Part shown: piece by piece, positions 44,201-47,200 of the stretch
Layout: the number at the start of each line of letters is the position of its first letter
Position numbering within the stretch: the stretch's first letter is position 1
NCBI GenBank assembly: GCA_951406725.2
Contig: OX597820.1
Location: forward strand, 3,162,001 to 3,226,000
Origin: Octopus vulgaris
Lineage: Eukaryota
Direction of reading: 5' to 3'
DNA length: 64,000 bases
Notes under the pieces: model-generated
Database searches by the model: none
The model's input: the letters and a program-made list of their open reading frames with translations, nothing else
What the model was told of the DNA's origin: nothing
Position numbers and translations under genes: made by a program

Positions 44201-47200
44201 CAGATCAGATTGGAGCCTGACGCAGCCTCCTGGCTCTCCAGACCTCAGTCAAACCGTCCAACCCATGCCAGCATGGAAAGCAGACATTAAACAATGACGA
44301 TGATATTTTTGTTTCTCTCGCCAGGTGTGTTTTTGCATAAAAATATATTTTCGTTTCTCTTGCCAGGTGTGTTTTTGCATAAAAATGTATTTTCGTTTCT
44401 CTCGCCAGGTGTGTTTTTGCATAAAAATGTATTTTCGTTTCTCTCGCCAGGTGTGTTTTTGCATAAAAATATATTTTCGTTTCTCTTGCCAGGTGTGTTT
44501 TTGCATAAAAATGTATTTTCGTTTCTCTCGCCAGGTGTGTTTTTGCATATAGTTGCTGATACATTAGGAAGTGTTGGTGTTATAATTTCTTCTGCCCTCA
44601 TTCATCAGTTTGGTTGGATGATTGCTGATCCCATATGTTCCATGTTTATAGCTACTTTAATAGGTGTCAGGTGAGTCATTTTTATTCATATTGTACACAA
44701 TATTACGTTGTATTTTGGGAAGGACAGTTTGCCAATAATAAACACATGCGCTGGTTCTATTTCACTTCTTTTAGTATTATTAGTCAACTGGTTAATTATA
44801 CAGTTCTATATTTAAGGGATGGGGAATTATGTACATTATTTACATGTGACAGATATTTATCCTCCTCTTGTTTGTTGTTAACAACAAACAAGATGAGGAC
44901 AAATATCCGTCAAATGTAAATAATATAATTGGTTAATTATTTCATCAGTTAACTCATTGTTTGATCAGTAAATCGGTGAGCTAGGGTGTACGGAATATTT
45001 TATCCAGAATTTTCCTATATGCACTGATTTCATTCCAATCCTCCTTGTGCTGCCGTGAAAGACCCTTTCTCTAAACACTCCCTCCCTCCCATACTTCACA
45101 GTGACATCTACTTATTGCTTTTAACCCTTTTGGCTCCCATGCCAGTGGCACATAAAAAGCACCATTCAAGCATGGTTGATGCCAGTACCGCCTGACTGGC
45201 CCTCGTGCCAGTGGCAATGTAGGGTGTACAGAATATTTTATCCATACACTACATTTTTGGAGCAGTTGGTGTTAGGAAGGGCATCCAGCTGTAGAGACCT
45301 TGCCAGATCAAGATTGGAGCCTGGTGCAGCCTTCTGGCTCACCAGTCCCCATTCAAACCGTCCGACCCATGCCAGCATGGAAAACGGACGTTAAACGACG
45401 ACAATGATGATGATGATTATTCTGTCAGTTTTATGATGTTATTCATCATCATCATCATTGTCGTCGTTTAACGTTTGATTTCCATGCTGGCTTGGGTTGG
45501 GCGGTTTGACTGAGGACTGGTGAGCCAGAAGGCTGCACCAGGATCAATCTGATCTGGCAAAGTTTCTACAGCTGGATTCCCTTCCTAACACCAACCACTC
45601 CAAGAGTGTAGTGGGTGCTTTAGGGACAGTCAGGCGGTTCTGGCAATGACCACGCTCAAATGTTGTTTTTCACATGCCAGTAGGAAGACTCTGGCAATGA
45701 TCACACTTGAATGGTGCTTTTCACGTGCCACCAGCACAGGAGCCAATCCGTGGCCCTGGCAACGATCATGCTTGGATGTGCTTTTAACGTTCCACTAGCA
45801 TGAGTGCCAATCAGGCAGAACTGTCATCGGCCACGTCAGCAGTTTTGATTTCACTTGCCTCAACAGGTCTTTGCAAGCAAAGTTTATTGTCCAGTGAGTG
45901 AGGGGTATTCATAAGCGGGCTGGTTACCCCCACTGGCATAGGCCACAGTCTCACTTGGCTTGTCAGGTCTTCTCAAGCACAGCATATCTCCAAATGTCTC
46001 AGTCACTAATAAAGGAAATTAAGTCTAGTTTTACTGGTGTGTTTAGTGTGGGGCCTGATTGACATAGATGCAGAACCTTATATGTATGATTTGAGCAAAG
46101 TTGACCCCCAACATTGGGACCAACTTCATGCAAGCATGAAGGCATGCTGGCAGAATGCTGCTCCTCTAAATGCAAACCTTAGCTGTCATTGTGGTTTTGT
46201 GGCACGAAGCAAAGCAAGCCTTGCCGTCCACTCAAGAAAACACACTGTAACTGATCCACAAGCACTCAAGCCAATTGAGCCCTCACCTTGTCCCATTTGC
46301 CAAAAGGTTTACAAGATGCCTGCAGGCCTCAAGAGACACGCCAGTGTCCATAGAACATGATTAACACTTTATTTTACTGAAACTTTGTCATTCACAACAC
46401 CAGAATCAATCAGATGCACACACACACACAAATCATTCTTATTATTGGAAATAGGTGAGGGTTGGTGACAGGATGGGCATCCAGTCATAGAACCTCTGTC
46501 TGATCTACGCAACCATGGAGAGTGCACGTTAACTAGTGATGGTGTCTATCAACGAAAGCCGACATCTTCAGATCCACGTCAGCTGGCTTTGTAAATATTA
46601 ACAACACAATTACTTTCATTGTCTTTTAGTGTAATACCACTTTTGAGAGACTCAGCAGGAATTCTGATGCAAAAGACCCCACGGCAGCTAGAATCCTCTT
46701 TACCTGGATGCTATCAAAGGGTATGTTCTTTAACGCTTTCGTTACTCTATTTATTTTGAGATGCTGTGTGTTCCTTTCAATTGATTTTATATATAACAAA
46801 GAATTTATTAAAATAACTTAGTTATAATTAAGCTAATGTTAGGAACATAAAATGTGACTAAGGTTTGGTGGAAGATTTTAATTCAGAACTTATGAAAACA
46901 AGACATTTGTACTAACGAGCCAGAGCCAGTTTCAGCTGGGTTGATAACGAAAGGATTAATCTCAATAAATGCTTGAAACTGGCAAGTTTTTAGTTGTTTG
47001 GAATTAGTCTTTTATTCTTTTACTTGTTTCAGCCATTAGACTGTGGCCATGCTGGGGCACAACCTTGAAGAAGTTTAGTTGAATGAATTGACTTCAGTAC
47101 TTTTTTTTTAAGCCTGGAACTCATTCTATCAGTCTCTTTTGCTGAACCACTATGTTATGAGAATATGGTTGTCAATCCTATGTGGGAGACTACCAAACAC

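Follow-up and report, generated by a model that had tools for sequence, protein, structure and literature searches.

A minisatellite multiplying the exon 8 acceptor of octopus ZnT7 that probably needs no recursive splicing for its removal

Reed and Maniatis are said to have worked on duplicated splice sites in 1986, and Romano reportedly described in 2002 an hnRNP H/G-run mechanism for a natural case, the 844ins68 allele of human CBS. This allele carries a 68-bp duplication of the boundary between intron 7 and exon 8, of which the distal site is used, and the mRNA is normal (PMC2630376). In the human F7 gene, the unit of the 37-bp VNTR of IVS7 spans an exon–intron boundary, and among the identical splice sites of the repeat only the one adjacent to the intact exon is used (PMC1557585). 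Another group of sites, the ratchet points of recursive splicing, is represented by Drosophila Ubx, kuz and Bx and by the RS-exons of mammals, in which an acceptor abuts a donor-like sequence and a short cryptic exon lies downstream. According to PMC8605326, ratchet points are conserved, are found mostly in long introns and generally win by a stronger donor, although relative donor strength fails to explain every case in the fly. Additionally, intron gain by tandem duplication of AGGT, as in the Rogers model and ATP2A1, has been reviewed (PMC3443670).

The octopus locus considered here lies in a stretch of 64,000 nucleotides from Octopus vulgaris, hereafter the window, which contains on its + strand a complete 11-exon gene (20204-52246) whose spliced exons give the exact translation of P0001, the zinc transporter 7 of O. 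vulgaris and O. sinensis, with a Cation_efflux domain. At the end of intron 7 (3774 nt) a tandem array was found whose unit, made of about 27 nt of the intron end followed by the first 15 nt of exon 8, crosses the intron–exon boundary and multiplies the splice site (Table 1). The resulting six CAG/GTGTGT sites (the slash marks the junction), referred to as AG1 to AG6, have their AG ends at 44324, 44366, 44408, 44450, 44492 and 44534, spaced by 42 nt, and the candidate ratchet site falls within the last 210 nt of intron 7. By inspection, this array is the only one among the 50 rows returned by TRF that overlaps an exon of the ZnT7 gene.

Table 1. Coordinates in the window of the ZnT7 exons, the array and the adjoining elements
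Feature	Position	Strand	Basis or remark
ZnT7 (SLC30A7) exon 7	40632..40760	+	Ends TGCAAG, phase 1; exon chain equals P0001, RNA contigs
ATAAAAATA, a word that also stands where two array units meet	43911..43919	+	Just outside the other end of the repeat
SINE-like dispersed repeat, tail ~20 nt before AG1	43936..44304	+	Many 69-90% identical copies in the window, very high contig depth
42-nt minisatellite, two variant unit types	44303..44549	+	TRF: period 42, 5.9 copies, 96% matches
AG1, first CAG/GTGTGT, proposed ratchet point	44322..44330	+	Sequence
AG6, last CAG/GTGTGT, joined to exon 7 in mature mRNA	44532..44540	+	RNA contig joints
ZnT7 exon 8, 136 nt	44535..44670	+	Closing donor CAG/GTGAGT; exon chain, RNA contigs
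ZnT7 exon 9	46630..46720	+	Exon chain, RNA contigs

The octopus array resembles the F7 VNTR in being a minisatellite laid over a boundary, with the site beside the intact exon in use, whereas the F7 repeat multiplies a donor and was tested with 50 constructs, while the octopus array multiplies an acceptor and is known from sequence and contigs. As compared with CBS 844ins68, which has two sites 68 nt apart, the octopus array has six at 42 nt and all of its products are in frame; the G-run mechanism has no counterpart in it, the unit having no G runs. The octopus site is also like ratchet points, since its acceptor abuts a donor-like sequence with a short cryptic exon downstream, but it was recently copied from the start of a coding exon, and its donor is weaker than those that compete with it, where ratchet points generally have the stronger one (PMC8605326). 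Likewise, the array is a tandem duplication that holds AGGT and has an identifiable source, as in the intron gain models, and its boundary is crossed as in potato RdRp (PMC4974935 and PMC3443670). Unlike the intron gains of potato RdRp and ATP2A1, however, the octopus mRNA contigs show neither a new exon nor a new intron, and intron 7 is merely 210 nt longer. A literature search, sparse in subscription journals, found no paper on recursive splicing in octopus.

The array was first remarked on for its motif. It was stated in the earlier note that every unit reads CAG/GTGTGT and departs from the donor consensus GTRAGT at +4 alone, and this description is accurate, with 8/9 matches to the full consensus MAG/GTRAGT. 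It was also stated that the end of exon 7 joined to the first AG recreates AAG/GTGTGT 210 nt upstream of the last AG, and the sequence bears this out. At all six acceptors, a pyrimidine tract and its AG directly abut the donor motif, as at ratchet points. The GT of the array corresponds to the phase-1 Gly codon (G/GT) followed by Val, which is the native start of exon 8; thus, whatever the route, the normal joining of exon 7 to exon 8 produces AAG/GTGTGT. The six AG/GT sites are therefore one site copied and not six events, and the motif was not created by the duplication. Among this gene's 10 downstream exons, 4 start with GT. The start of exon 10 (47547-47555) is donor-like as well, reading TAG/GTTAGT, and the AGG/GTTAGT regenerated there pairs with U1 at -6.1 kcal/mol, equalling the exon 8 site in strength without any duplication.

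Read in the ZnT7 frame, the array has no stop and gives 14 amino acids per unit. The use of any of AG1-5 (44325-44534) would insert up to five copies of the hydrophobic 14-mer GVFLHKN[IV]FSFL[LS]P before Gly228, and this insert would repeat the His of the HxxxD motif downstream, a motif with a role in the metal site.

Regarding its origin, slippage over a short microhomology ('ata') at the original end of the intron likely produced the array, and the dispersed repeat, which is presumably a SINE, likely landed in the first copy once the duplication had made that copy redundant. The word ATAAAAATA occurs four times on the + strand of the window, twice inside the array, and the position of one copy beyond the far end of the repeat suggests that it is likely a remnant of the original intron end, namely its left half, which the insertion of the repeat detached.

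The occurrence of the array outside the window assembly was followed in 4 of the 24 listed public runs: X1 and X2, of DNA type, and X8 and X14, which come from different studies. No run is recorded as RNA; X8 and X14 are classed as RNA-derived on the ground that GT..AG introns are skipped in their contigs. A 114-nt contig of run X2 (44436-44549) covers three tandem acceptors and a 72-nt contig of X14 (44394-44465) covers two, both with 0 mismatches. The array is thus not peculiar to the window assembly: it appears in contigs of two runs, one of DNA and one of RNA, and the X14 sample carries it. In the DNA runs, the exon 8 contigs begin at 44521 (X1) and 44520 (X2), in line with the graph fork expected from the window allele at 44520. 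Several single-base differences separate X2 from the window; a relation to the source of the window is possible for X1 as for X2. The X2 and X14 array contigs (44394-44549) take the form of single loops of 84 and 42 words, which the window allele would break up; since they are not exact unitigs of that allele, animals may differ in copy number or in the order of the units, and graph clean-up could be an alternative source of these shapes. Mean depth in the array bin was 326 in X1, 108 in X2, 0.42 in X8 and 2.49 in X14, values into which the neighbouring high-copy repeat may spill and which measure neither copy number nor expression.

These contigs bear on the reading by which the array would be an allele that is rare or confined to the assembly, the RNA coming mainly from alleles without it and saying nothing of its splicing. 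The differing contig shapes of X2 and X14, which may point to a copy arrangement that differs between animals, the lack of a listed array contig in X8 and the possible contribution of the adjacent high-copy repeat to the array-bin depth of the DNA runs would all agree with such an allele. However, the three-acceptor and two-acceptor contigs match without a mismatch, the starts of the exon 8 contigs in X1 and X2 agree with the predicted fork, and the units carry patterned variants, so that this reading appears very improbable.

The mature mRNA was visible in both RNA runs. In X8, one unbroken contig of 1462 nt (depth 309.9) and in X14 one of 1562 nt (depth 12) lead from exon 7 through the joint at 44535 into exons 8 and 9, the joints being GT..AG, and the exon 7-AG6 joint, which skips 3774 nt, was found in 2/2 RNA runs, carriage of the array being seen in one of them (X14). 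These unbroken contigs indicate that the main mRNA is normal, with no unit kept and no new exon. The outcome of zero added length, i.e., the absence of array sequence from the main mRNA contigs of both runs, was foreseen by the recursive proposal, and direct splicing predicts the same. Joints of exon 7 to AG1-AG5 were not seen among the 15 listed of 631, which does not imply their absence, since assembled contigs drop rare forms. Similarly, no unit-derived exon and no new intron between exon pieces was found in the main mRNA contigs of the two RNA runs, where rare forms are invisible. Among 197 ZnT proteins, few of them from octopods and nearly all from other taxa, none had a second GVFLH-like motif or a unit peptide at the start of exon 8. 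A comparison of the unit peptide with longer proteins returned 0/2963 candidates at E<=10, which is weak evidence, and no Pfam match; a match to the unit-peptide pattern in P0018 was set aside as a chance N-terminal one.

A leaky use of AG1-AG5, or an incipient intron birth, has to be weighed against these results. In this case, a real fraction of the transcripts in some tissues would keep one to five units, that is, 14-70 residues before Gly228, and sometimes a new intron of 84-168 nt, from an internal CAG/GTGTGT to AG6, would also be formed, as in potato RdRp. Since all the products are in frame and free of stops, they would escape decay; the internal donors are plausible, at -7.7 kcal/mol, and array sequence is present in the RNA-type run X14. 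Additionally, a duplication crossing the boundary did make a new intron in potato (PMC4974935). On the other hand, the main contigs of 2/2 RNA runs hold no unit, and the X14 array contig has a depth of 4.5, its words occurring about 2.7 times in the window allele, which is near the 3.5 of an intronic contig of X14 and is what unspliced RNA or DNA would give. As the protein survey also lacked any trace of the units, this leaky use is unlikely, and the proposal that an intron is being born here finds no new exon behind it, either in the contigs of the two RNA runs or in the 197 ZnT proteins.

The remaining question is whether the array leaves in one step or two. Since the mRNA of both routes would be identical, as is stated for an analogous case in PMC8184009, the choice between them rests on inference. 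The direct use of the distal acceptor AG6, as in human CBS 844ins68, is considered probable. Exon definition would pick AG6, copies 1-5 would leave with intron 7 as a single lariat, and products joining exon 7 to AG1 through AG5 would be rare. Direct use of AG6 explains that no unit is left behind, and the array would be tolerated because it is in effect intronic. The recursive alternative holds that the main route runs from exon 7 to AG1 (or AG2-4), and that the regenerated AAG/GTGTGT is then spliced to AG6, with removal of 84-210 nt. Thus, the part of the earlier claim by which the array is removed and normal ZnT7 mRNA restored is supported by the contigs of the two RNA runs, whereas the need for a second step is not supported, as direct use of AG6 gives the same mRNA and has a human precedent.

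The strength of the competing donors was compared by U1 duplex energy, a crude donor score rather than an octopus-trained splice model. The regenerated AAG/GTGTGT scored -6.2 kcal/mol, the internal CAG/GTGTGT of the units -7.7 and the exon 8 donor, with 9/9 consensus matches, -12.2; on this crude score, the regenerated donor was the weakest among those competing and did not exceed the donor downstream of the would-be RS-exon. It had been suggested that the regenerated site could act as a donor, and this is plausible, since its U1 pairing, at -6.2, surpasses that of the native exon 7 donor (-4.8 kcal/mol) and equals that of the exon 9 donor. The exon 7 donor itself, AAG/GTCTGG (40758-40766), is the weakest of the ten of the gene by U1 pairing, yet it is used in both RNA runs. 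Within the 32-kb gene span, pairing with U1 at least as good as that of the regenerated site was found at 117/1893 other GT sites, 5/1893 reaching 8/9 consensus matches; donor-like decoys are therefore common.

The acceptors differ in their branch candidates. The best branch-like motif of the six belongs to AG1, a TGAC at -28 contributed by the tail of the adjacent repeat element. For AG2-AG6, no YTNAY or TRAY was found within 50 nt, and 8/9 other acceptors of the gene have one. As branch candidate, AG6 (44335-44534 region) offers solely the A within cATAAa at -27, where the exon-derived and intron-derived parts of the unit meet. Under either route, a branch point of AG6 must work. RNA structure hiding AG1-5 was considered and rejected: the array fold had a z of -2.06, with 7/200 shuffles as good, a value inflated by repetition. 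The unpaired probability of tract and AG was 0.35 at AG1 and 0.48-0.59 at AG2-6, with no clear switch.

Several of these observations would suit recursion: acceptor and donor-like site are juxtaposed, the regenerated donor outpairs an exon 7 donor that is in use, the TGAC of AG1 could draw the first step to that site, and the final mRNA is as predicted. Moreover, the 42-nt unit could serve as an RS-exon, being near the ~50 nt of those of the fly, in which donor strength is not decisive in all cases (PMC8605326). Nevertheless, the ratchet donor would have to beat stronger donors, and with so weak a regenerated donor the donor-competition rule of PMC8605326 would make the use of AG1 favour inclusion and not a removal of zero length. 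According to PMC8184009 and PMC8605326, the exon junction complex (EJC) suppresses regenerated donors in fly and mammals; masking of the regenerated donor would thus be expected here, assuming that the EJC acts in octopus as well, and AAG/GTGTGT would be outcompeted by the CAG/GTGTGT donors of the array itself. The same AAG/GTGTGT junction is made in the final mRNA, and exon 8 is retained.

The number of possible paths also argues against a second step. With a second intron of at least 84 nt, 16/20 two-step paths leave units (an unweighted count), so that a two-step route should give a ladder of 14 residues, which the main contigs lack. Furthermore, conservation and a location in long introns mark the known ratchet points (PMC8605326), whereas the present site duplicates the beginning of an exon and lies where a 3.8-kb intron ends. 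Recursion as the main route is accordingly unlikely, and it is just as doubtful that a young minisatellite built its own ratchet, with exon 7 joined to the proximal acceptor by means of a branch from the repeat element and the regenerated donor then cutting out 210 nt.

The direct use of AG6 thus remains the preferred reading: the feature is real and its description correct, and the recursive mechanism is probably unneeded. The octopus array is most likely an ordinary silent duplication of a splice site, the equivalent, in six copies and at an acceptor, of CBS 844ins68 and the F7 VNTR. If recursion were true, the locus would show how a single slippage event can give rise to a ratchet point or a new intron, with two-step splicing repairing the effect of a mutation on a conserved gene; it would represent a natural instance of recursive splicing from a mollusc, observed as it arises and a single step short of gaining an intron. 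The six near-identical, in-frame acceptors constitute a natural substrate for acceptor choice in octopus, free of decay bias.
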